The notes beneath the pieces are model-generated. The model saw nothing but the letters and a program-made list of their open reading frames with translations, searched no databases and was not told the origin of the DNA. From positions 1 through 53,673 of the IMG/VR virus record IMGVR_UViG_3300031111_000014: a stretch of DNA of 53,673 nucleotides, one strand, 5' to 3'. Each line of letters starts with the position of its first letter. Positions within the stretch are counted from its first letter, which is position 1. A program made the translations under genes and the position numbers. Source of the stretch: a virus. Its lineage: Duplodnaviria > Caudoviricetes. This document shows positions 6,214 to 53,673 of the stretch, piece after piece.

Positions 6214-9200
6214 TTGGCCTCAGTAACCAAGACAGCAACAACTTCATCCGTCACCGCGTTTGAGGGGACTGGCTCCAACGGCTGGAGTAATCCCGACAAC
6301 GCGAGAGTGTCGGACAATACGTATGCTTCTTCGCTTAACGTCGCAAGCGAGAAGTATTTCTGCATCTATACGTTCGGCTTTGACACGGACGATATCCCCG
6401 AAAGCCACAAGGTCGATGGTGTCAAGGTTGAGGTAGAATGCCAGGACACCGGCTTTTCCTTCAACAACGCCAACATCTACCTACGGTTCGGGGCCAGTGA
6501 TTATTCGGCGTCGTCCAAAAGCCTGGTATTCCCGGCTTTCGAGAATTGGGTGGCACTCGGGAGCGCGACCGCCTTATTCGGGGAATCGTCTATTGGCGAC
6601 GACGTGGTCAGATCGAGTAACTTCGGTGTTGCCATCAAGCGATCGGGGCGTCCCTCCGACACGACGTTCCGCATCGACTCGGTGCGGATCACGGTCTATC
6701 ACTCGGAAGATGACCAGACTGTGCGGTTGGCCGGGGCCGTGTCTGGCGATAAAATCGGCCGTGCACGTCTGGCGCATATCCCCGATCCCGATAAGACCGT
6801 ACTGTCGAGGCTCGCGCAGGGGCTGACCGCCGACAAGACCGTTCCCGGTCGGTTATCGAACACCCTTGCGTTCCTGTATTACGAGCCGGAGTGGTGGGAC
6901 GTCTCCTATATGAAGCGACGGCCCATCTCATTCGGGACCGATCACGATGAGTTGCCGGTCGGATACACCGCGTCCGTAGCGTTCTTCACTGGATACGAGG
7001 AGCGGATCGCAACCGATGGCATTCTAAATGAGGCTATACAGCATTCAAGTAAGCCCCTCGTTAACTTTCAGGCTGCTGACGATAATTACTATACCGTTTA
7101 CGCATGGACGGACACCGAGGGTAATATCTACGTCCGCAAGCAGACGAGGACTGGGGCTAGTGCCGGGTGTTGGGGATCTGCCGTAGATACCGGGCTCACG
7201 GGGTCGGGGACCGACACTCACTTCTATCCAAATATCGTATGTGCGGATGACGGTAAGCTGTGGATATTCTGGGGTGGCCACAACAACGATACGAAATACG
7301 CGGTATCATCTGCCGCTTACGATGAGACGGCGTGGGGAAGCGCCCAAACCCTCTCGGGGGTTCTAGCATATCCACGGCCACTGGTGGACAATAACGGTGA
7401 TATTTTAGTCTTCTTGAGGGGGGCGTCCAGTACCGAAAAGATGGGGTTCTTCCGGTATGATGCGTCTGCATCGTCATGGGACCCCTTCAAATACATCGCC
7501 AACTATTCCGTCCATAAATACCTGACCGCACTAAACACTTCAATCTACTGTGGCGGTGTGGCCTATGACTCGTCCGGTGACAGAATACACGTTGTACTGT
7601 GCTGGTGGGATGGTTACGGGAATACCAATTACAATATAGGCAGGGCCGTCTCGCATATATACTCCGACGACTCGGGGTCTACTTGGTATGATCTGCAGCA
7701 GGGGAGCCTCGTCGGGAACGCATCAACGAGCAGTAGTTCCACGGAGGTTGTGACATATCTCGGCAACGCTACCGCCGGGACATCTGCCCCGACGAAGATA
7801 TTCCTGTCGGGCGACGAGGACGACGACGGGACCTCGGAGGGATGGCCAGGTGGAACGGCTACAAGTGCCCCGTACTACTTCACAAACACCGAGGCGTGTG
7901 CTCTCGATTCCCGAGGGTATCCCTATTTCTTGGTTCAAGAGATCCAAGACTACAAAGAGGAGCCGTGCGAATTGTGGCTTGCGCGGTGGTCGGGTTCTGC
8001 TTGGGCTAAGACTAACCTGTCTGCGCTCAGTGGTGGTCAGAAACTGTTCACCCACAGAACGGGGGGGAATCTCTATGTAGACGACGGTGGTATCGTCTGG
8101 GTCTACGGCTTTGTCTATGATGCGTCTGCTGGTGATAGTCAATTCGCGGGCGAACGGTTTAGGTGGCGCGGGTTGGCCTATGGGACGTCATGGTCGGCGG
8201 AGTGGCAGACCAAAAACACGGCGTTCGGGCACGGCGCGATGGCCGTCCTCCCTGAAGTACCTTATGGCGGGGCCCGGGAAATAATCTACTGCCGAGACAA
8301 CGACATCTTCTGGACGGATGACCGCTACTATCCATATGTCAGGCAGGACGGTGGAGACGTCCGCATCGTGCGCCAGCAAATGGACGCCTATGGTGAATAC
8401 ACAAATACCGAGCACGACAGACTCCCCGACCGCTTTCAGGCCGAGGATACTGCGATTTATTTCAAGCTACAAGCGACCGTTGCACAGGACTCCGAGCATC
8501 CCGGGACAGAGGACAGGTACTGGATATACTACAATAAATACAACGCAACGAACGCCCCAAATGACCCCGATAATGTCTACACATTCTTTGAAGACTTCGA
8601 GACGTACGTAGCAACCTCAGACATGGATGGACAGGGGGGGTGGTTTACTTCCGCGACGGCCAATACATATAGGCCCATCAACCACTACGATCTCAGCGAA
8701 TGGGATCAGACTGGCGGCAGCAAAATTGTCGGCGGGGCGCAATGCTTACTGTGTTACTACCCGGATACCACCCCCCCATACTTCTTGGCTAAGGCAGTAT
8801 CATGGTCTGATGTACGAGTGAGTTGGTGGATGGGCGTGCACATTAACCCAGATAACTTCAACTTCGTTGATCTCTATGAATCAGGGGGGGGGTGGGTCCG
8901 ACTTGGTTCTATCGGAAACTACTGTTATTACGAAAGGTCGGGGGATGGTACACCTCAGTACAGTAGTAAGTTTGCGCTTCCTGGGCGATACCACCATTAT
9001 GAGGCCGTGATATCTGGCAGTAGCGTCTCCCTATATGTGGACGGGGCGACGGTATTAGCATCGGACCCCGAGGTATCCTCCGTAGCAAGTATTAGGATAG
9101 GTACTACGGGAACCCTATCCCGAACGGTAGTAGACAAGATTGTCGTCACAAAGTACGTCGCTAACGCCCCCGCCCTCACTCTCGGTGACGAAGAGGGAGA

Positions 9201-15652: not shown

Positions 15653-16020
15653 ATCTAGCCGACCTGACCGAAGAAGAGCGTACCCTGATTGAGGGAATGA
15701 GGATACTGGCAAGGCTTGATCCGCGGTTTAAGTTCCTCGCCAGCAGTCGAGCATCTAGAGACCGCATTATGATTGACAGGGGCGCCCTGTATAACGGCAA
15801 TGGATCAAGCGTCATCAAGCAACTCTATTACAAGAAAGATCAATCAGCGTTCCATAAGGCTTTTGACCCGATGAATCGTCTCGAAAATATCTGTTGCACA
15901 AAAGAGGCCGGACAGGGTCTGCCTGACGCCACACTTCTTGAGCTGCCACAGGACGCCGCCAACTATCTGGATATGTGGCTGTGCTGTCGAGAGGACTTCA
16001 AAGCTAACGGCGGGGGATAG
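15649..16020 (+). CDS. Hypothetical protein
   Basis: GAGGAGG RBS, TTG start overlapping upstream stop. Confidence 0.55.
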   Translation: MNLADLTEEERTLIEGMRILARLDPRFKFLASSRASRDRIMIDRGALYNGNGSSVIKQLYYKKDQSAFHKAFDPMNRLENICCTKEAGQGLPDATLLELPQDAANYLDMWLCCREDFKANGGG

Positions 16021-16021
16021 T

Positions 16022-17302
16022 ATGAACAAGATAACCGATCAGCAGGTACTTGACGCTGTGTCCGACCACAAGGGGAACAAATCTCAGGCTGCTCGGTCCC
16101 TCGGTATGAGCCGGTCTGCCCTGCGTGATCGGTTGACACGGCTTGAGGCCGGACACTCGACTACCGAAAGATTGGCCTACAAGTCCCGACAGGAACGGGA
16201 CACCTGGTACATCGAGATAAACGGTGACGAGCGTATCCGTAATGCCGACGACGCCATAGCGAAGGCCGGAGTCGATCCCGCGATATGGGAGATCGAGCGG
16301 GTACTGGTGAACGGCTGGGACACAACGATGAAAATGAGGATCGGCGACGAGGACAAAGTCACCGTCAACCAGAACCAGCAGATCAAGGTCTGGTTGCGCC
16401 GGAAGGTCCCCCTGATCGCCGAGAAAGCCGCCGAGGCGCTTATCAAGCGCATGAACCTGCACTCACCCAAGTATCCGAAACTCCCCAAGTTCAAAAAGAT
16501 CAAAGACCCGCACTTACTCGAGGTCTCGGTATTCGACCACCATTTCGGGAAGCTGGCGTGGGGTGAGGAAACCGGCACGAATTACGATCTCGATATAGCC
16601 GAACGCATATTTAAGGAGGCCGTCGAGGATCTGCTTGCTAAAGCCAAATCGTTCCCGGTCGAGCGTATCCTGTTCCCCGTGGGGCAGGACTTTTTCCACG
16701 TAGACAACCCAGCGAACACCACAATCAACGGGACAGTCCAGGACGTCGACGGCCGCTATCAGAAGATGTTCCAAACAGGCGCGCTGGCCTGCATCAAAAT
16801 GATTGATCGGATGAGCCAGATCGCCCCGGTCGACATCCTGAGCGTCCCCGGGAACCATGACCGAACGATGGCGTGGTATTTGGCCGCGTACCTGAAAGCA
16901 TGGTATCGCCTTTGCGATCGGGTGTCTGTTGACCTGTCTCCGAAGCTCCGTAAATACTACCCCTATGGGGCGACCCTGATCGGGCTGACCCACGGCGACG
17001 AGGAAAAGCATCGGGATCTCCCTATTATCATGGCCGGGGAAGTCCCGCAGTTGTGGGCCGAGAGTCTGTACCGTGAGATTCATACCGGGCACTGGCACAA
17101 GAAGAAGGAGACCTGGTATAATTCCTGTGATACGCACGGAGGGGTGCCCGTGAGGGTCTTGCCCAGCCTGTCCGGGACCGACTTCTACCATTACCGAAAA
17201 GGCTACGTAAATAACCGGCAGGCGGCAGAGGCCTATCTCTATTCGTTCAGGGACGGCTATGCCGGTCACCTCTCATCGAGGGCTCCGGTCTATGGCGAAT
17301 AA
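16022..17302 (+). CDS. HTH-fused calcineurin-like metallophosphoesterase
   Basis: N-terminal GNKSQAARSLGMSRSAL HTH; DHHFG, GQDFFH, PGNHD, THGD, GHWH motifs; ATG at 16022. Confidence 0.8.
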   Translation: MNKITDQQVLDAVSDHKGNKSQAARSLGMSRSALRDRLTRLEAGHSTTERLAYKSRQERDTWYIEINGDERIRNADDAIAKAGVDPAIWEIERVLVNGWDTTMKMRIGDEDKVTVNQNQQIKVWLRRKVPLIAEKAAEALIKRMNLHSPKYPKLPKFKKIKDPHLLEVSVFDHHFGKLAWGEETGTNYDLDIAERIFKEAVEDLLAKAKSFPVERILFPVGQDFFHVDNPANTTINGTVQDVDGRYQKMFQTGALACIKMIDRMSQIAPVDILSVPGNHDRTMAWYLAAYLKAWYRLCDRVSVDLSPKLRKYYPYGATLIGLTHGDEEKHRDLPIIMAGEVPQLWAESLYREIHTGHWHKKKETWYNSCDTHGGVPVRVLPSLSGTDFYHYRKGYVNNRQAAEAYLYSFRDGYAGHLSSRAPVYGE

Positions 17303-17453
17303 AGAAAAGCCCAAGAAGCCGCGGCGCCGTCTTCAGACGCTGGCCGAGGGTTTCGGCAAATTCACCCTGAAACGTCTAGCCCTCGGCGACGGCAAGTCAA
17401 AGCTGCTCATCGAGTTCGAAATCGAGGACGCTAAGGGCAAGACGAACAACTAA
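17292..17453 (+). CDS. Small basic hypothetical protein
   Basis: ATG at 17292 overlapping upstream gene. Confidence 0.4.
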   Translation: MANKEKPKKPRRRLQTLAEGFGKFTLKRLALGDGKSKLLIEFEIEDAKGKTNN

Positions 17454-17797
17454 ACGCCAGCCACCAGGTAAACTATCAGGCTGACCGCCGTAGCCACGCC
17501 CACCACTATCAGGGTCGTATTGGTGCTCTCGCGGGTGGCCTCCGCAATCTCCTCGCCCCAATTATTCACCGGCGTTATCACCATTGTCGAATCCACGACC
17601 GTAGTGGAATCGTTCACGACGGTCTTATGGACCGTCCAGATGGTATCCTGCGTCCGCTGCTGAGTATCTCCGCCCGACATCTCCAACGCCAGGTTCACCG
17701 GCGCCACAAACCGAGAGGGCTGCAAATCTACCGGCCCCCCGGCAACACTCCCCACCATTAATAGTATCAGAACTGCGATACAAGCCGACCGTTTCAT
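17450..17797 (-). CDS. Membrane-anchored exported protein co-oriented with integrase
   Basis: N-terminal signal peptide, C-terminal TM; directly downstream of int. Confidence 0.6.
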   Translation of the reverse strand: MKRSACIAVLILLMVGSVAGGPVDLQPSRFVAPVNLALEMSGGDTQQRTQDTIWTVHKTVVNDSTTVVDSTMVITPVNNWGEEIAEATRESTNTTLIVVGVATAVSLIVYLVAGV

Positions 17798-17831: not shown

Positions 17832-18875
17832 CTACGCCCGCCCCATATCTACATACTTCATTATCGAAAACCTGTCGTGGCTTTCCTTTACCGCCTTAAC
17901 GTCGTGGCAGATATACCGTTGCGTAGTCCGAATATCCTGATGACCGAGTACCCGCCTAAGCATCTCTATGTCCATGCCGTTTTCGTGTAGGGCGGTCGCA
18001 CCGGATCGCCTGAGCATATGAGGATAGACCTTGAGCCCGACCTTCTTACCGGCCGCGACGACGATCTTCCTGATCCGGTCCTCGCTCATGGGATCTCCGT
18101 TCTTGTAGCAGATAAGCCGATCCCCGGCCCGTTTGTCCCTGTATTTCAGCCGCCAATGGTGTATCGCCTCGGCCGTCCGGGGTGAAATCGGGACCAGCCG
18201 CTCCCTCCTGGACTTGCCCCTGACGACGAGCAGGCGGTCCAATATCCGGCAATCGTCCACGGTCAAATTGATTATCTCGCCAACCCGCAAACAGGCGTCC
18301 AACATTAATAGGGACGCCAAGTGGTCCCGGTATCCAGTGAACCGACGCCGGTTGAACTGTTGTAGGAACGTGCCTATCTGGATGGGCTTCAACACCGGCA
18401 TGATCCGCTGCTCTACCGACATCAGGTGGACTCTCTCCATCGGGTTGTGATCTATCAGGTCTTCCGAGGCGAGGTAGTTGTAGAAGACTCGGAACACGCG
18501 GATTCTACCGTTGACGGTTTCCGGCGATACGTGACCAATGATGGACACCAAATAGCTTTGAATGTGAGATTGTTGGATTACCCCGAGATGGATTCCCGAG
18601 AGCAGACAGAACCGCATCAGGTAACGTAGCCTATCGGCGTAACACTTCAAGGTCCGCCGTCTTAACCCCTTGAGTTGACAGTGCAGATAAAACGATTCCA
18701 GCAATTCCCGATCTGAATATCCCGTTGTATAATTCCCCCGAGGCTTCTCCACGATGCTTCTGGTGCTCTCAGTATAGGAAGAGCTCCCGGTCTGCGCAAG
18801 GGAAAAGAGGACCCGCCAAGAGGTATTTACGGTGTTCTTTGTCCGGTTAAGGTCGCCGACGTACTGGGGGTCCAT
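17832..18875 (-). CDS. int: Tyrosine recombinase (phage integrase)
   Basis: Catalytic R (LRVGE), K (RGKS), HxxR (HMLRRS), H (LGH), Y (TTQRY); GGAGG upstream of ATG. Confidence 0.95.
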   Translation of the reverse strand: MDPQYVGDLNRTKNTVNTSWRVLFSLAQTGSSSYTESTRSIVEKPRGNYTTGYSDRELLESFYLHCQLKGLRRRTLKCYADRLRYLMRFCLLSGIHLGVIQQSHIQSYLVSIIGHVSPETVNGRIRVFRVFYNYLASEDLIDHNPMERVHLMSVEQRIMPVLKPIQIGTFLQQFNRRRFTGYRDHLASLLMLDACLRVGEIINLTVDDCRILDRLLVVRGKSRRERLVPISPRTAEAIHHWRLKYRDKRAGDRLICYKNGDPMSEDRIRKIVVAAGKKVGLKVYPHMLRRSGATALHENGMDIEMLRRVLGHQDIRTTQRYICHDVKAVKESHDRFSIMKYVDMGRA

Positions 18876-18922
18876 GATGGGCCTCCACGTTAATTCAGCC
18901 GTCCTTGGCGGGGGATACTGTA

Positions 18923-18950
18923 ATTATATACGAAAAAAACTTTCTGTCAA
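18923..18950 (-). promoter_or_regulatory. Sigma70-type leftward promoter for int
   Basis: Minus-strand TTGACA (18945-18950), 16-nt spacer, TATAAT (18923-18928). Confidence 0.75.
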
Positions 18951-19017
18951 TAGTTCTTTTGTTACATTGACTTACGGAAATTTTGGTTCTTGGGCCGGAA
19001 AAAACTCAACTTTTTGC

Positions 19018-19046
19018 TTGACAGGGATTAAACTTTTGGTTACTTT
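19018..19046 (+). promoter_or_regulatory. Sigma70-type rightward early promoter
   Basis: TTGACA (19018-19023), 17-nt spacer, TACTTT (19041-19046). Confidence 0.6.
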
Positions 19047-19101
19047 GTCCGATAAGATGGATAATGAAGCAAAAAACCCACAACAGCAAGGCGGTGACCG
19101 T

Positions 19102-19350
19102 ATGGCCTCATCCCTGGAGTTCTCAGGGAAGAAGCTGGACGACCTCATTAAACAGAGAGGTTGGACAGTGCCCCGGTTCGCCCAACTCCTTGCAATGGCT
19201 TCGCCTCAGTACAAGGCCACAACGGTGTCTATATACCGTTGGATTCGTGGTGACAGGACGCCGGAAATGAACTACCTCCCGGCCCTGAAACTGGTACTTG
19301 GGTTGAAAGACCCCGTGGCGGAGCTTTTCGAGGAGCGGCAGGTGAACTGA
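19102..19350 (+). CDS. Cro/XRE-like HTH regulator
   Basis: LDDLIKQRGWTVPRFAQLL...SIYRWIRGDRTP HTH pattern; 82 aa; no peptidase domain. Confidence 0.8.
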   Translation: MASSLEFSGKKLDDLIKQRGWTVPRFAQLLAMASPQYKATTVSIYRWIRGDRTPEMNYLPALKLVLGLKDPVAELFEERQVN

Positions 19351-20033
19351 TGTCAGCCGCCCTTGACAACACCCCGTCGACTCCGCGTATTTGCGGAAGT
19401 CCTTGCACGTCAAGGGTTGGACGGGCCACCGTAGCTCAGTTGGTAGAGCAGCTGATTCGTAATCAGAGTCCCTGCTCCCCCCGCTCCTCGACGACACCAC
19501 AACCACTTAGTCTGACGCCCCACGTCCTCACCGAGGGCAATCACAAGGCCCATCAGTTATCCCTAGAACTCACAAATCCAAACCAATCGGTCACATTTCG
19601 TCGGTGTCGAAAGTGCGGTAATGTCAAGCCGTTAGCAGCATTCTATCGAGACAAAAACAGTATTGGGGGGCACCGCTGGAACTGCAAAGAGTGTCATCGC
19701 CGACAGATGGTGGGCTATTATCGCGAGTACGCGGAGCGGCATCGAGCCGCCGTCTCTTCGTGGGCCGAAAGAAATCCAGAGCGGAAACAGGCGGTCAACG
19801 ATGCATATCGGCGAAGGCATCCAGATAGACAAGCGGCCCGGCGGCAGCTGCAGCGGGCCATCCGCGCTGGCCGCATATCCCGTGGTCCCTGTGCTGTCTG
19901 TGGCACGACGGTCGACATCCACGGGCACCACGAAGACTATAGTAAGCCCCTAGACGTGATATGGCTCTGCGGTAGACATCATCGGGAGTATCACGCGGGA
20001 CAAATCCAGATAGAACACAGGGAGGCGTCGTGA
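19350..20033 (+). CDS. Zn-finger/HNH-like protein spanning the tRNA fragment
   Basis: CRKCGNVKPLAAFY...CKEC and CAVCG...HGHHEDYSKPLDVIWLC..HH...H motifs; start overlaps HTH stop (TGATG). Confidence 0.7.
   Translation: MSAALDNTPSTPRICGSPCTSRVGRATVAQLVEQLIRNQSPCSPRSSTTPQPLSLTPHVLTEGNHKAHQLSLELTNPNQSVTFRRCRKCGNVKPLAAFYRDKNSIGGHRWNCKECHRRQMVGYYREYAERHRAAVSSWAERNPERKQAVNDAYRRRHPDRQAARRQLQRAIRAGRISRGPCAVCGTTVDIHGHHEDYSKPLDVIWLCGRHHREYHAGQIQIEHREAS
19425..19466 (+). other. 5' half of tRNA-Thr(CGT); putative attP
   Basis: GCCACCG TA GCTC AGTTGGTA GAGC A GCTGA TT CGT AA TCAG gives acceptor 5' strand, D-arm and anticodon arm; no T-arm or 3' acceptor strand follows; ~550 bp from int start. Confidence 0.8.
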
Positions 20034-20602
20034 CCTCCCTAACATTAAATAAGGGCGAGTGGCGGAATATAGACGCAAGTTCTGGGATCAGACTGTTGAT
20101 GGCGCGGGAGCGATACCAGCTAAGTAATGTCTTATGCCTTCGGGTACTGGGTCGTAATAACAGGAATTGCATCGTGGATGCAGCCATGCCGTGCCGTGCC
20201 AGGGTGGAAGTCCCTGGCCTCGCCCTGCAAAATATCTACTACGTTACTTCCTTCACTCCATTGTTTGCGGTACTCGTACCTCGGCGCGGTAGTTTCCACC
20301 CGCGTCGGGGTCAAGATTACGGGGCGGCACATCGACAACCCCAACATGAAAGGCGGGTGGTCGCTGAGTCATGTCACGCCGCCCCATTAAAATCAAGGGG
20401 CTTGGTCATTAGTCGGCATCTTTTACGACCGATGCGCGGCGACGGGGTGATCCCGGTCGAATATCACCCCACCAAGCCCCATAGGCTTTCATTCCAAAAC
20501 CCCGCGTCCCGGTCATCTATTACCTGTGTTACCCTACCCAACCCCCACGGCCGGGACGCATTGAAATTTAGCGACTATTCGATATGGGGAGATTTGCGGT
20601 GA
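20030..20602 (+). CDS. ORF overlapping the structured RNA region (coding status uncertain)
   Basis: GGAGG RBS, GTGA overlaps at both ends, but atypical amino-acid composition. Confidence 0.35.
   Translation: MTSLTLNKGEWRNIDASSGIRLLMARERYQLSNVLCLRVLGRNNRNCIVDAAMPCRARVEVPGLALQNIYYVTSFTPLFAVLVPRRGSFHPRRGQDYGAAHRQPQHERRVVAESCHAAPLKSRGLVISRHLLRPMRGDGVIPVEYHPTKPHRLSFQNPASRSSITCVTLPNPHGRDALKFSDYSIWGDLR
20052..20559 (+). ncRNA. Candidate large multi-domain structured RNA
   Basis: Nested helices 20052-59/20219-26, 20321-28/20378-85, 20397-406/20471-80, 20444-51/20463-70, 20504-14/20549-59; cUUCGg and GNRA tetraloops; possible kissing loops. Confidence 0.6.
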
Positions 20603-21162
20603 AGTATTACAAGGTGCTCAACGAATACGGTGGAGCGTGTCACGGCGGGTCGGGCAAGTGGTTACTACCGGACGGTGACACGCCCGGCGGGTGGATGCCG
20701 CGTATCAAACAAGTTATCCCCTGTAAACGCGGTTATCACCTGTGTCGCAGGGGCGATCTTGTGGTGTGGTTGGGGCCAACGATTTATCTGGCTGAAGGCC
20801 GAGGCGAGAAGGTAGTAGGTGACGATAAGGTGGTTTTTGCGGAAGCGCGGCTCATTCGCAAATTCAACACATGGGACGATAGAACGAAACGACTATTTGC
20901 TGCCGATTGTGCTTTTCATGTTCTCCATTTCTATGAAGAGCGCCACCCCAAAGATGACCGCCCCCGCAAAGCCATTGAGGCGGTCCGGCAATTCGCCAAT
21001 GGACTAATTAGCCGCCAACAACTGTCCGCCGCTAGGGCCGCCGCTAGGGTCGCCGCTTGGGACGCTGAGGGCGCCGCTAGGGCCGCCGAGCGTGAATGGC
21101 AAACGCGGAGGTTATTTGAATACCTGAACGGTAAAACGAAATTTAGCGATGCCTTGATATAA
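20599..21162 (+). CDS. Phage protein with Imm5-like/Ala-rich repeat domain
   Basis: RLFAADCA.HVL..YE...P.DDRPRKAIEA and AARAAAW motifs. Confidence 0.6.
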   Translation: MKYYKVLNEYGGACHGGSGKWLLPDGDTPGGWMPRIKQVIPCKRGYHLCRRGDLVVWLGPTIYLAEGRGEKVVGDDKVVFAEARLIRKFNTWDDRTKRLFAADCAFHVLHFYEERHPKDDRPRKAIEAVRQFANGLISRQQLSAARAAARVAAWDAEGAARAAEREWQTRRLFEYLNGKTKFSDALI

Positions 21163-21174
21163 GGAGGAGAGATC

Positions 21175-21426
21175 ATGAAGAACCGCAAGGTCTACGGTGG
21201 ACGTGATGGAACCCTTTGGGTTGAAGTGATTCAACGAGACAGCTTTATCCCCGTAAACACCTCGGACCCGAAAGACTTCACGCCACAATCAATCTGCGGC
21301 CTACTTAAACAATGCCGCAGACATGTTACCACCAACACAAGGGGGGAGCGAGTCACCCGTGGCAAATTACGCTGCGCCGGCCGCCTCCTCCGAATACAAC
21401 GAGCCGATCTCGTTTGTGTTTTATAG
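21175..21426 (+). CDS. Hypothetical protein
   Basis: AAGGAGG RBS. Confidence 0.55.
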   Translation: MKNRKVYGGRDGTLWVEVIQRDSFIPVNTSDPKDFTPQSICGLLKQCRRHVTTNTRGERVTRGKLRCAGRLLRIQRADLVCVL

Positions 21427-21448
21427 GGAAAACCAGGGAGGAGAGATC

Positions 21449-21880
21449 ATGGGAGAATCAAAACACATGGCAGATGAGGGGCTGGGAGTTCTTGTTTGGG
21501 ACAATGTTGGCGGTAACTTTATGGGACTTCACTATGAAAGTGGTGGCTATTACGCTAAACAACCGGGGTACGCAATTGTCGGGGAGGGGTTAGCCCTCCG
21601 CGCCCCCGCACTTCTTGCCGAGCGCGACCGCCTCAAGGAGTACGTCGAAGAACAGCGCCAAACGCTGATCGCTGTTGTCGGGGCGAAGGAACAACTCCAC
21701 GAAGAGAACGACCGCCTCAAGGAGTTGGTGGGGGAGATGGTGGAGGAACTTGGACATGCGCGGAACTACGTCCAAGAGGTCTCTAACGCCAGCCTTCATT
21801 CCGAGTACGATTATGCGGACTATGACCTACTCGATCAGATCGAGACAGTTATCGCCAAAGCGAAGGAGGCGATATCATGA
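21449..21880 (+). CDS. Hypothetical coiled-coil protein
   Basis: GGAGG RBS, ATG 21449, ERDRLKE/ENDRLKE repeat. Confidence 0.55.
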   Translation: MGESKHMADEGLGVLVWDNVGGNFMGLHYESGGYYAKQPGYAIVGEGLALRAPALLAERDRLKEYVEEQRQTLIAVVGAKEQLHEENDRLKELVGEMVEELGHARNYVQEVSNASLHSEYDYADYDLLDQIETVIAKAKEAIS

Positions 21881-22182
21881 ACTCAGTCGAATCAATGCTG
21901 TGGGGTGTCGTCCTGGGGTGCCTCCTCGGCGGTTTCCTCGGATGCTACATCACTCGCCGCCTGATCGACTCCAGATGGCGACGCCTCACGGCGAAAATCT
22001 CATCACGTCACCAGCTCGACATCAATTCTCTCCTGGCCCGGGAGTCCGAATGTTCCCGGGCCTGTCGGGGCATGAAGCACCCCGTAGAGACCGTCAAGGG
22101 TCTCAAGGCTACGGCACTGGTGGTCCACAAACTGTACGGCGTAGGCGCTGAGGAAATTCAGGACATGGAGGTAAGGGTATGA
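21877..22182 (+). CDS. Membrane-anchored hypothetical protein
   Basis: ATGA coupling, N-terminal TM. Confidence 0.55.
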   Translation: MNSVESMLWGVVLGCLLGGFLGCYITRRLIDSRWRRLTAKISSRHQLDINSLLARESECSRACRGMKHPVETVKGLKATALVVHKLYGVGAEEIQDMEVRV

Positions 22183-22568
22183 GCTTCGAGAAGTATCACG
22201 CATTAAGGTCGGGTCGCAACGCAACCTCGTCAGGTTACTATGTCGGGATCTGGAAATCTGGGTTGATTGTCATTGGGGCGGCCGCCGCCCAAAAGGTGGG
22301 GCTTACTGAGGGTAGTTCTTGCCAATTATGGTACGATGCCGACGCTGACACCATCGCAATACAGCCCTGCAAATCGCATCAACGTGGCATGATGAGGGCT
22401 TGTAAGCACAAGACCCTGAAGGACACATCTGCGGTCGTGATATCCGGGGTCGGTATAATAAACCGATTCCGACTCCACCACTTCAAGCGTACACAGTTTC
22501 CCTTTTCTCTAAATTCTGACGGGTGGATGATACTTGACCCTAAAGCGGAGGGAGTGATCAAGCGATGA
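22179..22568 (+). CDS. Hypothetical protein
   Basis: GGAGG RBS, ATGA coupling. Confidence 0.55.
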   Translation: MSFEKYHALRSGRNATSSGYYVGIWKSGLIVIGAAAAQKVGLTEGSSCQLWYDADADTIAIQPCKSHQRGMMRACKHKTLKDTSAVVISGVGIINRFRLHHFKRTQFPFSLNSDGWMILDPKAEGVIKR

Positions 22569-22771
22569 GCAAGAACGTCCATGAAATAATCTATCGGGGT
22601 CTAGCTGGTACGGTGCGACGCGAAATAGACTGGTACGACCCCGAGAACGCCCTCCGTCTGGCCCGCATCAAGCGGCAGCAGGAAGAAGCGATGGCTGAGG
22701 ATGCGCTGTTCGATGAGCAACGCGACTTCGAAGCGGAGAGCGAAATCATGCACAGAGCGAATGAGAGGTGA
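22565..22771 (+). CDS. Hypothetical protein
   Basis: ATGA coupling. Confidence 0.5.
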   Translation: MSKNVHEIIYRGLAGTVRREIDWYDPENALRLARIKRQQEEAMAEDALFDEQRDFEAESEIMHRANER

Positions 22772-22775
22772 TGTT

Positions 22776-23714
22776 ATGGCCTTCAAAAAAGCAGAGAAAA
22801 AAGGGATTCGGGGGCGGATAGCCATCTGCGGCCCGAGCGGATCAGGAAAGACTATGTGGTCCCTTATACTGGCGTCGATATTCGCTGGCCAGTACAAGAC
22901 GAAGATAGCGTTCGTCGATACAGAACAAGGCTCGGCCGTAAAGTACGCCGACCTGTTCGAGTTCGACGTCCAGGAGCTGTTCGACGACTTCGGCCCCCAG
23001 CGGTACGTGGCCGCCATGAAAGAGGCCGCGGACGCAGGCTACGGTGTTATCACCCTGGATTCCATCACTCACGCGTGGGCTGGCACGGGAGGGCTTCTCG
23101 ATCAGAACTACGAGACGGCCAAGAAGATGCGCAACGCCAATTCCTACGCCGCGTGGCGTGAGACGACGCCAAAGCACAATGAGTTCATCGAGGCGATGCT
23201 AGCCTACCCTGGCCATCTGATCGCCACGATGCGGACGAAGACCGAGTATGTGCAGTCCGAGGACGATCGCGGGAAGAAGCAGATCCAGAAGGTCGGGATG
23301 GCGCCGATACAGCGCGACGGTATGGAGTACGAGTTTGATATGGTCTTTGACGTCAACATGGAGCACGAACTGATCGTCGGTAAAACCCGCTGCAAGACGA
23401 TCGCCGACAAGGTTTACAAGCCCACTGACGCCGATGCTAAAAAACTCGCCAAGGCTATTATCACTTGGTTGGGCGACCAGGCCACGGTGGTTGACCGTGG
23501 GATGCCACAGCCCGAACGCGAGACCATCCTCCAGCGCATTGACACCGGCCTGCAGAAGTTGTTCGCCGACCCCGCCGAGGCCGCGGTCTACTGCGAGAAC
23601 AAGATCGGCAAGCTCGACCCCAATAAGATGACAGACGACGAGCTGGCCGCGTTGTTCGAGTGCATCAAGGCCGACTACAAGGCCAAGCAGAAGGAGGCCT
23701 CCGATGCTGCATAG
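22776..23714 (+). CDS. AAA_24/Sak4-like recombination ATPase
   Basis: Walker A GPSGSGKT, VDTEQGS, TLDSITHAW, IQRDGMEYEFD motifs. Confidence 0.85.
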   Translation: MAFKKAEKKGIRGRIAICGPSGSGKTMWSLILASIFAGQYKTKIAFVDTEQGSAVKYADLFEFDVQELFDDFGPQRYVAAMKEAADAGYGVITLDSITHAWAGTGGLLDQNYETAKKMRNANSYAAWRETTPKHNEFIEAMLAYPGHLIATMRTKTEYVQSEDDRGKKQIQKVGMAPIQRDGMEYEFDMVFDVNMEHELIVGKTRCKTIADKVYKPTDADAKKLAKAIITWLGDQATVVDRGMPQPERETILQRIDTGLQKLFADPAEAAVYCENKIGKLDPNKMTDDELAALFECIKADYKAKQKEASDAA

Positions 23715-24285
23715 TGAAGAATATCGAGATCTGGAAGAAGAGGTTTTGATTTCCGAGGACGGACTACCGATTGACCCCGAGACCGGGGAGATCATCGCCG
23801 ATCCCCTGCAGGTACAGGTGCAGGACCTGCCGGACGTAGCTCGCCGGATCAGGGCGCTCCAACGTCGAGTTGATATAATCCGAGAATTCGAACGCCAGGA
23901 AATCGAACGTATCGCCGGGGCCTGTTCGAAGAAGGTGTTGGCGATGGAGGCCCAGGTCGACTGGTTTATCTCTCGGGCCGAGCAGTTACTGGCCGAGACC
24001 GGCAAGGATGAAATCGACTATCCAGGGTTGGGTAAGTTCCGGTTTGGCATGACCAGGGAATCTGTAGTGACCGAGGTTTGGGACAATATGTCAGATGAAG
24101 ATAAGCGTCGGGTCCATGTCAACAACACGATGATCTTTCACGACCCGGCACGTAAGGACGTGCTTGAGCGCATCAGCCCCGACAAGCGGGAGATAGCGCG
24201 GCGACTGAAGAACGGTACGCTCCATCCGGACGTGTTCAGGTTATCCGAGAAGGAGCGCGTGTTTCAATTCAAGCCGGAGAAATGA
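23704..24285 (+). CDS. Gam-like/Gp157-like host-nuclease inhibitor
   Basis: DPETGEI motif, coiled coil, PGLGKFRF; next to the Sak4-like gene. Confidence 0.6.
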   Translation: MLHSEEYRDLEEEVLISEDGLPIDPETGEIIADPLQVQVQDLPDVARRIRALQRRVDIIREFERQEIERIAGACSKKVLAMEAQVDWFISRAEQLLAETGKDEIDYPGLGKFRFGMTRESVVTEVWDNMSDEDKRRVHVNNTMIFHDPARKDVLERISPDKREIARRLKNGTLHPDVFRLSEKERVFQFKPEK

Positions 24286-24408
24286 GGGGGGATGCGCCAG
24301 CTGGCGTTGTCCTCGCAACCCTCCCGGTCGTAACGGGCCGGGAGGACACTAACACTCTAGCGGGAGGAGATGGTGATGAGCAGTGATTCAAAGTACGGGG
24401 GTGACGCT

Positions 24409-24894
24409 ATGACCAAGCTAGACGAAGCGGTGGAGCGACTAGTGGAACAATCGGTGAAGGACTTTCTTGATGATATCTGGGGCGATCCAGCGTGTGGTGA
24501 TACGTTCTGGAAAAGCCCGGAGGACCGCAATAGTGGCAAAGATTTGGTGGCTCTAAGACAAATAGGTATATACGTCACGGCCACTCTCCGCGACTTCGCC
24601 TCCGAGGTGGTCGCGGCCACGAAGCCGCAGGGGGGAGAGGTGGAGGTGTTGAAAAAGAATCTTCAAGGTTCAGCGGCAACGATTCGAGACCAAATGGATG
24701 AAGTCACCGCCCTGACCGCCCGCTGCAAGAGGCTGGAAGACGCGCTGAGGCAGATGGGGGATTGCGACCTCGACTCATTGGAAGTCTTCATGGAAGAAGA
24801 CGAGCAGGTGAATAGACTGTGGGATGCTGTCGTGAATGCTCGTGAAGTTCTACGCGCCCAGGCCGCGCTGGAAGACAAGGAGGTGGGGGGATGA
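24409..24894 (+). CDS. Hypothetical protein
   Basis: Coiled-coil ORF in early operon. Confidence 0.5.
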   Translation: MTKLDEAVERLVEQSVKDFLDDIWGDPACGDTFWKSPEDRNSGKDLVALRQIGIYVTATLRDFASEVVAATKPQGGEVEVLKKNLQGSAATIRDQMDEVTALTARCKRLEDALRQMGDCDLDSLEVFMEEDEQVNRLWDAVVNAREVLRAQAALEDKEVGG

Positions 24895-25618: not shown

Positions 25619-25844
25619 GACGCGAAAAGTCGGTGAGTACATGGTGGCGGTGAAGGAGTATGGGCATGAGAACTCTTGGCACATTTATGATGGGGATAAT
25701 ATGTGTCTCGGTTTCGTGCAGTTTATGGCGGGCTATGAATTTCATAGTTATGGATGCCTAACGGCCCAACAGCTCCGTACCATCGCCGCCTTCCTAGACG
25801 AACTCAATGCCAAGCACAAGGACGCGGAGAAGGAGGAGGGATGA
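25611..25844 (+). CDS. Hypothetical protein
   Basis: AAGGAGG RBS. Confidence 0.5.
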   Translation: MPETRKVGEYMVAVKEYGHENSWHIYDGDNMCLGFVQFMAGYEFHSYGCLTAQQLRTIAAFLDELNAKHKDAEKEEG

Positions 25845-26734
25845 GACAAGTTATTGTTTTAAAAAAAAGTAACGTATGGTATGCAAAATCTCCGGAATAT
25901 AATGGTTGGGACGACAGATATCAGATTAACGGTGCCCCGGTTGAAAAATGTATAGATGGGCGTTGGTGTCAGCTTTCACAACAACCCCAAAAGATAGAAG
26001 TCCTAGTAACGCCGCCAAGTAGAATTGTCGCCTATAAGCTAAGAGACGACTGCCGTGAAGTCGCCCCTAACGCTGCCGCTGAAGTAGCCCCGGAATTTTT
26101 TGCGCTACACGACGATTACGAGACACGTGACAACGAGCATTTGTACCGCCTTTACGAAGAAGTACGCGAAACGCCAGAGTCATATCTTGATCTGTGCGAA
26201 TGGGACATAGTGCTCGCCGACCTTGACTGCGAACCGGTGACGATGACTCTGCCAGTCAAGGTGGATGTGCCGAAAGTATTCACCGAATATCTGGAGACTC
26301 ACCACAAATACCCATGCACACTAAGTTCTGATGCTTTGTTTGATTTGCTATGGGACAGGGTGCACGCCAAAATCGGTGCTTCTGACAATTTCCAAATGGA
26401 CGCTTACAAGAATATCCGCGCTTTAACAGTCAAGCGTTTAATTAAATTTGCCACCCCACAGAAGGCAAGCCGTAATGTGGCTCGTTTTGGTGCCAGAAAG
26501 CCGAAGTGGCAGAAGTATTTGAAACACTACGACGCCAAGACGCTATTCACCATTCACGGAGCGTCTTACAAATCATCGGGGCCCTATACCCCGACACTCA
26601 GGGCCAACAACTATGCGGAGATGGAAAAGCAGGTGGACGAATACTGTCAGGGTTTCTTGGATCAGCTTGAGGACGTAGCTATAAGCGAATGCCCACATTG
26701 TCAGGGATACGGTTTTGTGGAGGCCGCCAAGTGA
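25841..26734 (+). CDS. Hypothetical protein with C-terminal CxxCxGxG
   Basis: AGGAGG RBS, ATG 25841; visibly more AT-rich than flanks. Confidence 0.6.
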   Translation: MRQVIVLKKSNVWYAKSPEYNGWDDRYQINGAPVEKCIDGRWCQLSQQPQKIEVLVTPPSRIVAYKLRDDCREVAPNAAAEVAPEFFALHDDYETRDNEHLYRLYEEVRETPESYLDLCEWDIVLADLDCEPVTMTLPVKVDVPKVFTEYLETHHKYPCTLSSDALFDLLWDRVHAKIGASDNFQMDAYKNIRALTVKRLIKFATPQKASRNVARFGARKPKWQKYLKHYDAKTLFTIHGASYKSSGPYTPTLRANNYAEMEKQVDEYCQGFLDQLEDVAISECPHCQGYGFVEAAK

Positions 26735-27909
26735 CCCCGACACAGAAACGCATGGACGCCGGGATGACTTGGCCTGAGCACATCAACGAAATCTGCATTG
26801 GTGACTGCAGGGCCGTTCTGCGCGAGATTCCCGACGGCGTTGTCCAGACCTGCATCACCAGCCCGCCGTATTGGGGCTTGAGAGACTATGGGACGGCAAC
26901 TTGGCAGGGCGGCGATCCAAACTGTAACCATAGGGTGGGTCGATTTGAAACTGAGACGCCCGTGAGTAATAAGCAGAAATCTAATAGTGGAAGCGCGGGG
27001 CACCAAGCAAAAGATATTTGTCCCAAATGCGGGGCGGTCAGACAAGACCTCCAGCTCGGACTTGAGCAAACACCCGACGAATACGTTGCGAACATGGTCG
27101 AGGTGTTCAGCGAGGTCAAGCGGGTGCTGAGAGACGACGGGACGTTGTGGCTGAATCTGGGAGACAGTTATGCCGGGTCATGGGGTGATTCTGGGAATAG
27201 GCCAGAGAGGACGGGCAAGCCCGGGCATCAGAGAACGAAACAGACGGAGTATCTTCAGCGCTCAGGGCATCCCCAAGTTGACAAGCCGGTAACGGTATCG
27301 CCGCCCGGGTGTAAGCCTAAAGACCTCGTTGGCATCCCCTGGATGGTGGCTTTTGCCCTACGTGCTGACGGCTGGTATTTGCGCTCCGACATCATCTGGT
27401 CGAAACCCAATCCGATGCCTGAATCAGTCACCGACCGGCCAACAAAGGCGCATGAGTACATTTTCCTGATGAGTAAGAACGCGAAGTATTACTACGATGC
27501 GGATGCTATTACGGAGGCGATATTAGAAACCACCGTAAACCGCTATGCACAATCAACCCCAATGACAATTTCAGGTCAATTTAAGGGGTCCCCAAAAGAC
27601 AAAAGGCATAAAGACGATGACGGTAAAAAGATATATGGGCGCGATCTACCACTTAAGCGCAACAAACGCTCGGTCTGGACCGTCGCCACTCAGCCGTTCC
27701 CCGGCGCTCACTTCGCCACCTTCCCGGAGAGGCTGATCGAGCCGTGCATCTTGGCCGGATCGAAAGAGGGTGACATCGTGCTGGACCCGTTTGGCGGTAA
27801 GGGCACGGTCGCAAAGAGATCGAAGGAACTTGGTCGGAAGTTTGTCCATATAGACCTCGGCTATGAGGAATTATCGAGAGCGGAGACGGCCCAGGAACAA
27901 CTTCTATGA
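26731..27909 (+). CDS. DNA methyltransferase, likely N4-cytosine (SPPY)
   Basis: TSPPYWGLRDY, WLNLGDSY, KPNPMPESVTDRPTKAHEY, HFATFP, DPFGGKGT. Confidence 0.92.
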   Translation: MTPTQKRMDAGMTWPEHINEICIGDCRAVLREIPDGVVQTCITSPPYWGLRDYGTATWQGGDPNCNHRVGRFETETPVSNKQKSNSGSAGHQAKDICPKCGAVRQDLQLGLEQTPDEYVANMVEVFSEVKRVLRDDGTLWLNLGDSYAGSWGDSGNRPERTGKPGHQRTKQTEYLQRSGHPQVDKPVTVSPPGCKPKDLVGIPWMVAFALRADGWYLRSDIIWSKPNPMPESVTDRPTKAHEYIFLMSKNAKYYYDADAITEAILETTVNRYAQSTPMTISGQFKGSPKDKRHKDDDGKKIYGRDLPLKRNKRSVWTVATQPFPGAHFATFPERLIEPCILAGSKEGDIVLDPFGGKGTVAKRSKELGRKFVHIDLGYEELSRAETAQEQLL

Positions 27910-33577: not shown

Positions 33578-34396
33578 ATGGTAGAGATCGAAAAAGACGT
33601 ACCGCTCCTCCGCACGACGTTAACCATCCGGGCGGTCGAGAATAAAATCCAGCAGTTATTCGATTCGAAGGTGATCGGCGGGACCGTGCACCTGTCTATC
33701 GGGCAGGAGGTGATCGACGCCTCGATTATTGGGGCATACGACAACCCCCTGGTCTTCGGCAACCACAGGTCGCACGGCCAGTATATTGCGGCCACCGGCG
33801 ACGTTCGCGGCCTGTTCGAGCAGGTCTTCTCCGGCATGTCTCAGCATCTGTACTACCCCGATAAGTTCCTGTCTCACGGGATTCAGGGCTCTCTAGTCCC
33901 TGTCGCATTCGGCGCGGCAATGGCGTTCAAGCAGAGGGGGCTTGATCGCCGTGTTATTTGTTTCATCGGTGACGGGACGCTCGGGCAGGGCGTGGTCTAC
34001 GAGACGCTCAACCTGATGGGGCGGTATAACCCGCGTATGACATTGATTGTGATCGATAACAGGTACTCTATGGCGGAGACACGGCAAGGGTTGGAGGGTT
34101 GGGGCTCGCCCGTATTCCCTGAGGTCTTTGAGGTTACCCAGTATTTCGGCGACGTGAGGGGCTTCCCTGAATATACTGACTCCGATATTGCTGTCTTTGC
34201 CGCATCGCGTCTCTGCGGCCATTCCTGCAACGATACGCAAATGTACCGGCCCAAAGAGGAGCGAACGCCGGGGTGGGTAGCCCAAAACGACCCCCTGCAG
34301 GTATTTCTCGAGGACCCGATGCTTGAGGGGTTACGCCGACAGATCGAAACCGAAGTTGAGGAAATAGCCAATGACGTACAGAAACGCCATCAATAA
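33578..34396 (+). CDS. TPP-dependent dehydrogenase E1 alpha-like subunit
   Basis: GGTVHLSIGQE, NHRSHG, TPP-binding GDG...DN, RLCGHSCND. Confidence 0.9.
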   Translation: MVEIEKDVPLLRTTLTIRAVENKIQQLFDSKVIGGTVHLSIGQEVIDASIIGAYDNPLVFGNHRSHGQYIAATGDVRGLFEQVFSGMSQHLYYPDKFLSHGIQGSLVPVAFGAAMAFKQRGLDRRVICFIGDGTLGQGVVYETLNLMGRYNPRMTLIVIDNRYSMAETRQGLEGWGSPVFPEVFEVTQYFGDVRGFPEYTDSDIAVFAASRLCGHSCNDTQMYRPKEERTPGWVAQNDPLQVFLEDPMLEGLRRQIETEVEEIANDVQKRHQ

Positions 34397-34892
34397 GGCG
34401 TTGCGGGATCTCATGGCCGAGGACGGCCGTGTAATCCTGATCGGGCAGTCGATCCGGGACCCCTACGGTGGTGCCTGCAAGGTCACCCGGGGCCTAACCA
34501 AGCATTTCGACGGCCGGATATTCGACAGCCCAATATGCGAGGACGCCATGATCGGCTGGGCTATTGGCCTGTCACTGCAAGGCTACGTCCCGATTGTCGA
34601 GATCATGTTTGCCGATTTCCTGCCGCTTTGTATGAACCAGATATTCAACGTCGGCAAAGTTATACACCAGTACCACCAGCCCGTCAAGGTCGTGATCAGG
34701 ACTATGATCAACGGCGACAAGATGTACGGCCCGACCCATAGCCAGAGCATGGAGTATCTGCTGGGGACACCACAGGACGTGGTGCGCGGGCCGGACGTCG
34801 CCGGGATATACCGGCGGGCGGTCGAGGACAAAGATCACCCGGTGAACATCATCGTCGAGAATAAACAGATGTACGACAAGGAGGTGGAGTAG
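34371..34892 (+). CDS. E1 beta/transketolase pyrimidine-binding domain (C-terminal domain absent)
   Basis: TYRNAINKAL, KVTRGL, DSPICEDAMIG.AIG, PIVEIMFADF, GPTHSQS. Confidence 0.88.
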   Translation: MTYRNAINKALRDLMAEDGRVILIGQSIRDPYGGACKVTRGLTKHFDGRIFDSPICEDAMIGWAIGLSLQGYVPIVEIMFADFLPLCMNQIFNVGKVIHQYHQPVKVVIRTMINGDKMYGPTHSQSMEYLLGTPQDVVRGPDVAGIYRRAVEDKDHPVNIIVENKQMYDKEVE

Positions 34893-35243
34893 ATGCCCGA
34901 CAGCAAAAGAACAATATGGCGGTGGGTGTGGCTTGTCCTTACGGTCGCGGTGGTCGCTATAATCATAGGGGTTGCCGTAAAAGGCATCTACGATCAGGAG
35001 GTCCTCAATTTCAGGGCGAGGGCGATAGACAAGGCTGTCGTTGTCAAAAAGATATTTATCGGAAGCCACCCAAAGATATTCGGATCTCGTCCAGCGACGT
35101 TTCGGTTAGTTCTGATTGGGGCCGATGGCGAGGGTAAGATCAGAATGACGGAGGATGTTCCCCGAGAGTTATTCTACGCGGCGGGGGTTGGCGATTCCAT
35201 AGATTTGGCTGATTATTCTATTTTCTGGAAGGCTGACAAATGA
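34893..35243 (+). CDS. Membrane-anchored hypothetical protein
   Basis: N-terminal TM segment. Confidence 0.55.
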   Translation: MPDSKRTIWRWVWLVLTVAVVAIIIGVAVKGIYDQEVLNFRARAIDKAVVVKKIFIGSHPKIFGSRPATFRLVLIGADGEGKIRMTEDVPRELFYAAGVGDSIDLADYSIFWKADK

Positions 35244-36260: not shown

Positions 36261-36455
36261 ATGGAAGACCGGCAGCAGTTTAAGGCGTTCATAGTTAAGA
36301 TGCATCCGGACCTGTCGGACCTTGATATCGAGGTTATGTTCTTGCGGCAGTATGGACTTACGCAAAGAGAAATCGCCGCACAGGTAGGGATCTCCCAGCG
36401 TGGGGTAGGCAAGAAGTTGCAGAAATTGCGAAAAAAGTTTAATGGGCGGTTCTAA
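36261..36455 (+). CDS. Sigma70 region-4-like HTH, putative late regulator
   Basis: LSDLDIEVMFLRQYGLTQREIAAQVGISQRGV; directly before packaging genes. Confidence 0.7.
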   Translation: MEDRQQFKAFIVKMHPDLSDLDIEVMFLRQYGLTQREIAAQVGISQRGVGKKLQKLRKKFNGRF

Positions 36456-53505: not shown

Positions 53506-53673
53506 CGAGCGGGTCCAGATCGTTGTCGATGCCAAGAACCAGGCAAAGGGCGTCCTTTCGAGCGTCAAAAACCAGGTCCTGGCCATCGGTGCGGCCTATC
53601 TCGGGTGGAAGGCGGTAACGGGTATCATCGGCAGTATTGTTGAGAAGGGCATGGAGTCCGAACAGGCCTGGAA
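53492..53673 (+). CDS. Tape measure protein, 5' part
   Basis: MATRNERVQIVVDAKNQA..., continues into position 1 onward. Confidence 0.85.
   Translation, partial: MATRNERVQIVVDAKNQAKGVLSSVKNQVLAIGAAYLGWKAVTGIIGSIVEKGMESEQAW

Follow-up and report, generated by a model that had tools for sequence, protein, structure and literature searches.

What becomes of the early genes of a temperate phage if its attachment site lies inside the first of them? This question was raised by the tailed-phage record IMGVR_UViG_3300031111_000014, which was analysed here over its entire length of 53,673 bases (hereafter the window), and in which a leftward integrase gene (int) stands back to back with the gene of a small helix-turn-helix (HTH) regulator, itself followed by an open reading frame (ORF2) containing the 5' half of a tRNA-Thr(CGT) gene. 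An earlier note on this DNA, based on its letters alone, had recognised these three elements and proposed that integration at the tRNA half would cut the early operon from its promoter and thereby act as the lysogeny switch. Pfam, AlphaFold and Rfam placed all three where the note had seen them (int, 17832-18875, minus strand; regulator, 19102-19350; 5' half, 19425-19466). The anatomy of the locus, its exact match in host genomes and the conservation of its layout in relatives could be established directly. Taken as a whole, the data are best explained, and we think rather probably so, by integration at 19425-19466 into a host tRNA-Thr(CGT) gene, which would split ORF2 and detach the rightward genes; that this cut of the operon would itself be the lysogeny switch we infer from the layout.

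A tRNA-Thr(CGT) 5' half as probable attachment site

Bases 19425-19466 (plus strand) correspond to positions 1-42 of tRNA-Thr(CGT) and aligned perfectly with positions 1-43 of the Rfam tRNA model (25.5 bits). No whole tRNA was detected over the window by ARAGORN, and no other tRNA-like match was present in it at E<=10. Exact copies of the 42-mer turned up in 20 species genomes (by title, Zixibacteria or GN15 in 11 cases); the 42-mer belonged to whole tRNA-Thr(CGT) genes in 18 cases, the other two being cut by a contig or block edge. The host tRNA-Thr on which the earlier note depended therefore exists, and the exact match provides a host assignment for an orphan phage. When up to 3 mismatches were allowed, the 5' half was matched in 183 of 285 Zixibacteria genomes, with second copies in at least two genomes (G210 and G255). 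The exact 42-mer gave no match in IMG/VR.

The half starts 74 nt past the stop codon of the regulator gene and, as the earlier note had it, lies inside the first early ORF (ORF2, 19350-20033). Identity with the host gene is lost at tRNA position 43, and the block ends within the 3' arm of the anticodon stem. It thus has the outline of a tRNA-targeting phage attachment site (attP), in that the block of identity reaches an end of the tRNA and stops at the anticodon stem-loop. The 5' half is very probably attP, and we infer that the phage would integrate at 19425-19466 by a crossover within the anticodon loop (19456-19462). Junctions of the attL or attR type were seen solely for other elements, and none was observed for the phage of the window.

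The reading frame that crosses the tRNA half

ORF2 (plus strand) is composed of an 85-residue bridge, which runs through the putative attP, fused to an HNH endonuclease domain. Its ATG overlaps the stop codon of the regulator gene (TGATG). The endonuclease assignment is based on a match to phrog_2340 (E 4.3e-29, residues 84-218) and on the presence of both a zinc ribbon and an HNH motif, of which the Cys and His columns are invariant. Homologues of 132-230 aa matched the C-terminal part of ORF2 only. In 10 aligned homologues, the first zinc-ribbon Cys was preceded by about 30 residues or fewer (four or fewer in six of the ten), compared with 85 in the window. The HNH domain of the window has no start codon at the place usual for the homologues, and the in-frame starts of ORF2 are limited to the ATG at 19350 and a TTG within the tRNA block. 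As there is no other in-frame start, translation of the endonuclease must start upstream of attP and cross it.

The frame of the bridge is open in the window and in two related phages described below (L048 and L070), while the remaining two frames contain 3-9 stops each (5 and 3 in the window). Among 2000 dinucleotide shuffles for each of the three phages, this frame stayed open in 287, 29 and 125 trials. All genes between 19057 and 21162 overlap or abut.

Related phages and integrated elements

The integrase belongs to the tyrosine recombinases (Pfam PF00589, E 3.8e-32, with the SAM-like N domain PF13495; phrog_1, E 5.2e-48) and contains the R-K-H-R-H-Y catalytic domain of this group: in an alignment of 19 sequences of relatives, columns R197, K221, R289, H312 and Y321 were invariant and H286 nearly so. 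Its closest relatives were P0003 (74% identical) and P0002 (70%). The family is frequent in Zixibacteria, with matches at E<=1e-35 in 53 of the 285 genomes (best identity, 42%). In IMG/VR, a single-protein search found no close relative, and the 19-sequence alignment gave matches of 30% identity at most; six closer sequences were used for the metagenome scan.

Two diverged relatives from metagenomes, which share the module of the window, were informative with respect to the layout. L070, whose integrase fragment is 39% identical to that of the window, displays in the same order int, a divergent homologous regulator, an overlapping ATGA and a Thr(CGT) 5' half. This half differs from that of the window at 2 positions, which reproduce the tRNA variant of other Zixibacteria among the matches listed. 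In L048, whose integrase is 44% identical, int is accompanied by a regulator of clear homology, by an HNH ORF and by the TGATG overlap seen in the window. The position equivalent to the half of the window is taken there by a tRNA-like 3' part, comprising T arm and acceptor strand, in inverted orientation. In L048 and L070 alike, the piece points its tRNA terminus towards int and its anticodon end away from it. The integrases of the three phages form one clade (support 98/91), indicating that a single integrase clade can switch between 5' and 3' tRNA parts.

This bears on the dominance of 3' parts among tRNA-targeting elements, for which the usual argument is that the host promoter has to be kept. 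In the window phage the rebuilt tRNA would rely on a phage promoter, and another solution was found in an integrated island of the Zixibacteria genome G236. On contig C16 of this genome, an integrase 40% identical to that of the window adjoins a divergent whole tRNA-Lys(CTT) gene, and tRNA positions 1-49 recur, as a perfect repeat of 49 nt, 20.1 kb off on the same strand. A TTGACA-N17-TATAAT pair precedes both tRNA copies (7000-7113 and 27163-27301; L135 and L134), so that the tRNA-proximal flank of the island holds a copy of the host tRNA-Lys promoter: an element of the 5' type can supply the rebuilt tRNA with a promoter.

A relaxed Thr(CGT) 5'-half pattern matched 38 loci in IMG/VR, of which 36 could be scored: 33 were whole tRNAs and three were true halves, each sitting beside an integrase, the other two being cut by contig ends. 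In one IMG/VR provirus, the 5' half is found at 148-189 beside the integrase, and a whole tRNA-Thr(CGT) at about 42153, after the tail-fibre gene and with a host autotransporter gene beyond. Two further arrangements, on IMG/VR phage contigs, have the 5' half followed by int (L161, 2572-3762) and int followed by the half (L188, 708-1803). The identity blocks of Thr(CGT) 5' halves end at tRNA positions 41-43 throughout. As judged from these repeats, genuine integrations of the 5' type are shown to occur both in this integrase family and at tRNA-Thr(CGT), and a strong comparative case can be made for the predicted attachment site. The earlier note had looked to related prophages to reveal the site; the G236 island and the IMG/VR provirus do so as examples of the 5' type, and the part concerning the window phage itself found no lysogen.

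Two loci with other tRNA-associated repeats were encountered. In genome G094 (C255, 3-986; L151), an unusually long repeat of the classical kind, covering tRNA-Thr(CGT) positions 4-76, has its copies just 910 bp apart and is perhaps the remnant of a deleted element. At L067 (8837-11537), a whole tRNA-Pro has a repeat of its 3' part about 1 kb downstream on one side, and a divergent integrase with a double-HTH repressor-like gene on the other; the only repeat in reach is the 3' part opposite. Two elements could here exploit both sides of one tRNA gene.

The regulator and other DNA-binding proteins

The regulator (plus strand) has 82 aa, or 97 aa if translation starts at the ATG at 19057. No Pfam family was assigned to it, HTH_3 not being reached, and its PHROG match, to 'transcriptional repressor', was weak (E 9.5e-4). 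Its family is tiny: a search of 1.84 billion representatives at E<=0.001 recovered only 20 proteins, of which 14 are small; the closest was P0099 (79% identical). In the 285 Zixibacteria genomes, the family profile gave 2 matches, both in unrelated contexts and neither beside an integrase or a tRNA. Against PDB, the same profile retrieved XRE-type proteins (best E, 8e-4). The AlphaFold model (pLDDT 90.8) could be superposed on P22 c2, the CI-NTD of TP901-1, SinR and C.BclI, a controller of the restriction-modification type; P22 c2 was the top Foldseek match (template modelling score of 0.82 on the target, root-mean-square deviation of 1.8), all Foldseek matches having E>=0.014. The model thus confirmed, at fold level, a predicted five-helix HTH of the XRE/Cro-CI type. 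The designation 'Cro-like' in the earlier note is supported at the level of this fold, which is equally CI- or C2-like; the sequence allows either role, that of a Cro or that of a CI.

The earlier note had also found no repressor of the cI type elsewhere. Pfam scans covered 56 ORFs and a number of further ones, exclusive of the large tail-region ORFs and several head-region ORFs; HTH_3, Peptidase_S24 and excisionase domains were absent from all of these at E<=0.01, as were a second XRE gene and, at Pfam level, xis, cII and cIII. The regulator itself, with its 82-97 aa, is devoid of the S24 autocleavage domain of LexA/CI-type repressors. To this extent the claim stands, but other DNA-binding proteins are encoded. 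A second small HTH of the sigma-70 region 4 type (64 aa; 36261-36455, rightward; 26.5 bits for a cut-off of 25.7) lies directly ahead of a ParB-methyltransferase fusion and the terminase; it is a candidate for a regulator of late genes or for a small packaging protein that binds DNA. The others are an HTH_8-exonuclease fusion (15938-17302, Pfam) and an AbrB-like ORF (22179-22568, sub-threshold match).

Promoters, candidate operators and the C-rich tract

A promoter-like site for int (18923-18950, minus strand; TTGACA-16-TATAAT) agreed with the consensus at 12 of 12 positions in a consensus scan. The putative promoter of the regulator and early operon (19018-19046, plus strand; TTGACA-17-TACTTT) was read by eye. 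Equivalent promoter-like pairs, also back to back, are present in L048 and L070. Downstream of the tRNA half, a plus-strand scan for the E. coli-type consensus from 19467 to 24500 revealed no promoter-like site. The motif AAMTTTTGGTT occurs twice on the plus strand (18978-18988 and 19031-19041), each time in the spacer of a TTGAC-type hexamer pair. Both of its matches in the window lie in the int-regulator intergenic region, and at least two matches were also obtained in 20 of 100 shuffles; the copies are weak candidates for operator half-sites.

Right after the core of the tRNA half, a C-rich, G-poor tract (19451-19570, plus strand) encodes a Pro/Ser/Thr-rich linker. Its excess of C over G, 24 per 80 nt, is the joint maximum of the genome (mean, -1.5; standard deviation, 7.1), and a C-rich, G-poor stretch likewise follows the tRNA piece in L048 and L070. 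L070 has in addition a hairpin with a T-run about 110 nt beyond its half. When untranslated, such a tract could be a loading site for Rho.

Proposed outcome of integration and alternative explanations

According to the explanation favoured here, the integrase would recombine the 42-nt block with the host tRNA-Thr(CGT) gene, most likely inside the anticodon loop. Since it is the 5' part that comes from the phage, the rebuilt tRNA would come to lie at the int-proximal prophage end, downstream of the regulator gene, and would be reliant on phage transcription. Since the block is inside ORF2, this ORF would be split, and its HNH domain would be shifted to the opposite end along with all other rightward genes (early, replication, packaging, head, tail), which would lose their only recognisable early promoter and come behind that of the host tRNA. 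One prophage end would then be made of the host tRNA promoter, the 5' half, the remainder of ORF2 and the early, replication, packaging, head and tail genes, and the other of the leftward 115-aa ORF and int, the promoters, the regulator, ORF2 codons 1-25, the rebuilt tRNA-Thr and host DNA. As predicted from sequence, this geometry is that of the earlier note, with regulator, promoters and rebuilt tRNA at one end and the other genes behind the host tRNA promoter. The regulator, an obvious candidate for int shut-off and autoregulation, would still be expressed in the prophage and would shut off transcription from its own promoter as well as from the consensus one of int. That the host tRNA promoter would then face the lytic genes is a difficulty of the scheme; transcription entering from it would be halted, the remainder of ORF2 being untranslated and opening with the C-rich tract; loss of the ORF2 start codon could silence it because Rho needs an untranslated, C-rich leader.

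Several observations weigh against this explanation. No lysogen of the phage or of a close relative was found in the 285 Zixibacteria genomes, in IMG/VR or in sequencing runs, and the best identity of the large terminase subunit (TerL) was only 41% in these genomes (6 of 285 with matches at E<=1e-20) and 43% in IMG/VR. The phage was present in one sequencing run only, probably its source, which is stored as contigs. These break at 19437-19453, since the tRNA block is common to many tRNA-bearing contigs, and no clean hybrid junction could be read from them, so that they speak neither way. The putative early promoter at 19018-19046 was missed by the promoter scan, the second hexamer agreeing at 3 of 6 positions with a consensus that is of the E. 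coli type. As to the C-rich tract, the window is just as C-rich at 20461, and the coding of a Pro/Ser/Thr linker would by itself simply explain it. The Rfam match of the L048 tRNA piece was weak (18.6 bits, E 3.7), and none of 121 Zixibacteria genomes matched this 3' part within 3 mismatches, which leaves it without a host.

The behavior of the integrase family is a further point on that side. Among 48 loci of relatives, the classical arrangement prevails, with a whole tRNA on the same strand just upstream of the integrase in 30, compared with a divergent one in 3; a tRNA was not within reach in the other 15, for several of them because the contig ends there. Two genomes even use tRNA-Thr(CGT) itself in the classical way. 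In G130 (C6, 75954-91193; L150), the element is bounded by a 73-nt repeat covering tRNA positions 4-76; G134, among the matches listed, looks classical from its coordinates only.

The prevalence of the classical mode can also be used to argue that the tRNA half is a relic, either an old recombination scar or a captured fragment, the phage integrating elsewhere or never. The fact that no junctions were observed, and that the contigs of the single run merely break at the tRNA piece, would fit such a history. The form of the piece does not: it spans the tRNA exactly from position 1 to the 3' arm of the anticodon stem, limits that recur in 4 other independent 5' halves; the half of L070 is tuned to a different host variant; the window is without any other tRNA-like piece; and neutral drift would not leave an identity of 42/42. 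A relic thus appears improbable, and we return below to explanations in which the half is in use.

Of these, the one that fares best besides that of a detached operon accepts the half as attP and assumes conventional immunity. The XRE protein would be a repressor acting at one or more early promoters further downstream, for instance within 20034-20583, and the cut of the operon a mere by-product. We consider this possible, if on the unlikely side. It is possible that the XRE protein is itself a conventional maintenance repressor: its fold fits the DNA-binding domains of phage CI and C2 proteins as well as Cro-like proteins, its PHROG match is a 'transcriptional repressor', and small repressors without a peptidase domain exist, such as P2 C. 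The further DNA-binding proteins encoded by the phage (the sigma-70 region-4 HTH, the HTH_8-exonuclease fusion and the AbrB-like ORF) count in the same direction and against a regulator acting alone.

The region that would hold such downstream signals deserves attention. ORF2 is overlapped by an ORF of doubtful coding and without a Pfam or PHROG family (20030-20602, plus strand). If this ORF is not real, ORF2 is followed by a leader of 550 nt, possibly with a promoter or an antitermination signal; 20034-20583 may therefore be non-coding and have signals of its own, a further point against the favoured explanation. Within this stretch, a 62-nt element with sharp borders (20108-20169) is 90% identical to a sequence of Proteus phage vB_PmiP_Brookers, the only one of 50,697 phage records with a match. 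It folds as a hairpin with a UUCG loop and belongs to no Rfam family. In Brookers, which is P22-like, the copy is located in the early-left operon, after a LexA-family repressor and a NYN-domain gene. The element may represent an early RNA acting in cis, or else a mobile element of small size, and its conservation in such a context favours conventional immunity. Opposed to this, both matches of the candidate operator motif in the window fall between int and the HTH gene, the scan showed no promoter-like site downstream of attP, and the translational coupling of regulator and ORF2, together with a bridge frame kept in three phages, would not be expected if the position of attP were incidental.

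The detached operon can also be read in a bolder manner, as a minimal switch made of one promoter, one regulator and one recombinase, in which one transcription unit, led by the XRE gene, comprises the whole lytic programme and is physically unplugged by Int. This would have Int produced from its consensus promoter before the regulator accumulates, and recombination taking place inside the translated bridge ORF. In the prophage, regulator and rebuilt tRNA would form the sole phage transcript, polarity of the Rho type would kill read-in, and excision alone would re-arm the phage. The module would accept either tRNA half, as illustrated by the 5' half of the window and L070 and the 3' part of L048. 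We propose this scheme tentatively and regard it as unlikely in its complete form. If true, no simpler temperate switch would be on record for a tailed phage, and this one would be the natural counterpart, in an uncultured phylum, of the 'ancestral' switch, based on recombination, that has been put forward for mycobacteriophages; reconstitution in E. coli is within reach for a module of this size.

That the piece acts mainly as RNA rather than as a recombination site, for example as a tRNA-like decoy or as an RNase P processing signal for the 3' end of the regulator mRNA, would suit its sense orientation with respect to regulator transcription and the fact that tRNA-like structures are RNase P substrates, but is highly improbable, as a 5' half without the acceptor 3' strand and T arm cannot form such a substrate and as the piece of L048, at the equivalent position, is antisense to the operon, as would suit a DNA site but not an RNA signal.

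Comparison with known systems

The classical anticodon-loop tRNA attP, reportedly described by Williams in 2002, is said to have an identity block bounded by the anticodon stem, a symmetric core and a restored tRNA. The site of the window is alike in these respects. It differs in that the classical attP, as it is said to be, is a 3' part with which the host promoter is kept, whereas the 5' part of the window would leave the restored tRNA in need of phage-side transcription.

Integration-dependent immunity is the closest known system, although its defining features are not those of the window. In the mycobacteriophages BPs, Brujita and Charlie, the repressor gene itself contains attP, and a degradation tag is lost on integration; in phages of the BPs type, rep and int are co-directional and co-transcribed, a separate cro is divergent, and Int and Rep bear C-terminal degradation tags (PMC3694055). 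As far as that account goes, the window shares with them a compact int-regulator module and an attP inside a coding sequence beside the switch. It would also share the principle that integration alters the gene product made and is hence part of the decision. Likewise, xis, cII and cIII remained undetected here by Pfam. Unlike in the BPs type, attP is in the ORF after the regulator, 74 nt past its stop, so that the repressor is not truncated; int is divergent from a single XRE gene, without a separate cro; and integration would disconnect the lytic operon instead of stabilising the repressor. A literature search for phage attP sites severing lytic genes from their promoter retrieved papers on integration-dependent immunity only, and was too limited to call the arrangement unpublished.

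Pelagiphages of the HTVC019P type carry, like the window phage, the 5' part of their target tRNA, which completes the disrupted host tRNA (10.1101/410191). These are T7-like podoviruses whose attP differs in being non-coding and located between int and the RNA polymerase gene; the passages on them describe neither coupling to a regulator nor a frame across attP. Together with the 3 halves among the 36 scorable IMG/VR matches, the reported pelagiphages show that the rarity of phage-borne 5' parts implied by the earlier note was overstated: a tRNA attP of the 5' type is unusual, not new.

Outside phages, the main functional operon of Tn916 is promoterless when integrated and is read through the attachment site once the ends are joined, and a promoter is joined to int only in the circular form of ICEclc (PMC5812530). 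Integration would similarly unplug the main operon of the window phage. On the evidence of that source, Tn916 and ICEclc differ in being conjugative elements, in which the cut governs transfer genes or int and not the choice between lysis and lysogeny; Tn916 differs further in that a tRNA gene is not its target. In tRNA-dependent lysogeny, the target tRNA is left unrestored, its loss being made good by a complete tRNA gene of the phage (PMC10865867). As that report presents it, this system resembles the window in departing from the simple restoration of a tRNA on integration, unlike which the window is without a whole tRNA gene and the tRNA would be rebuilt exactly.

What is new is the combination, in that a tRNA attP of the 5' type lies inside a translated bridge ORF coupled to the sole XRE regulator, which heads the whole set of rightward genes. 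The position of the module is conserved while tRNA half and orientation vary, and the phages are those of an uncultured phylum.

Genome organization and neighbouring genes

The record is probably that of a complete temperate phage whose host is a Zixibacteria-like, uncultured bacterium of sediment. The window, which is the entire record, begins and ends with the same 9 bases (1-9 and 53665-53673). The source contig of the integrase has 53,805 bases, 132 beyond the window, and these together with the 9 shared bases make 141, a usual assembler word length, which suggests an assembler overlap. Because the shared ends and the 132 extra bases fit such a 141-base overlap, the genome is likely complete and circular or terminally redundant.

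Nearly all genes are transcribed rightward, including those assigned by PHROGs to the terminase large subunit (38403-40136), the portal (43572-45677) and a protease-capsid fusion (45741-47942). Only the integrase gene and a 115-aa ORF downstream of it (17450-17797, minus strand) are leftward. The latter, taken from the ORF list, gave no family in Pfam and PHROG searches; the hydrophobic N and C termini read from its translation suggest that it is possibly a membrane protein expressed in the prophage. Beyond the ORF of doubtful coding, and overlapping it, is an Imm5-like ORF (20584-21162, plus strand); in a prophage, both would come to lie at the end away from int.

Two ORFs may be related to host defences. 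A Gad1-like Gabija anti-defence protein is encoded at 25754-26734 (E 8.3e-18), and a Tad2-like Thoeris anti-defence domain was found in one of the 56 ORFs of the Pfam scan (E 1.7e-11). Finally, a thiamine-pyrophosphate enzyme split over two ORFs, with the E1_dh/TPP-binding part first and the transketolase pyrimidine-binding part second, is followed by a hexapeptide-repeat transferase (33578-35992); this cassette may be an auxiliary metabolic or modification module.

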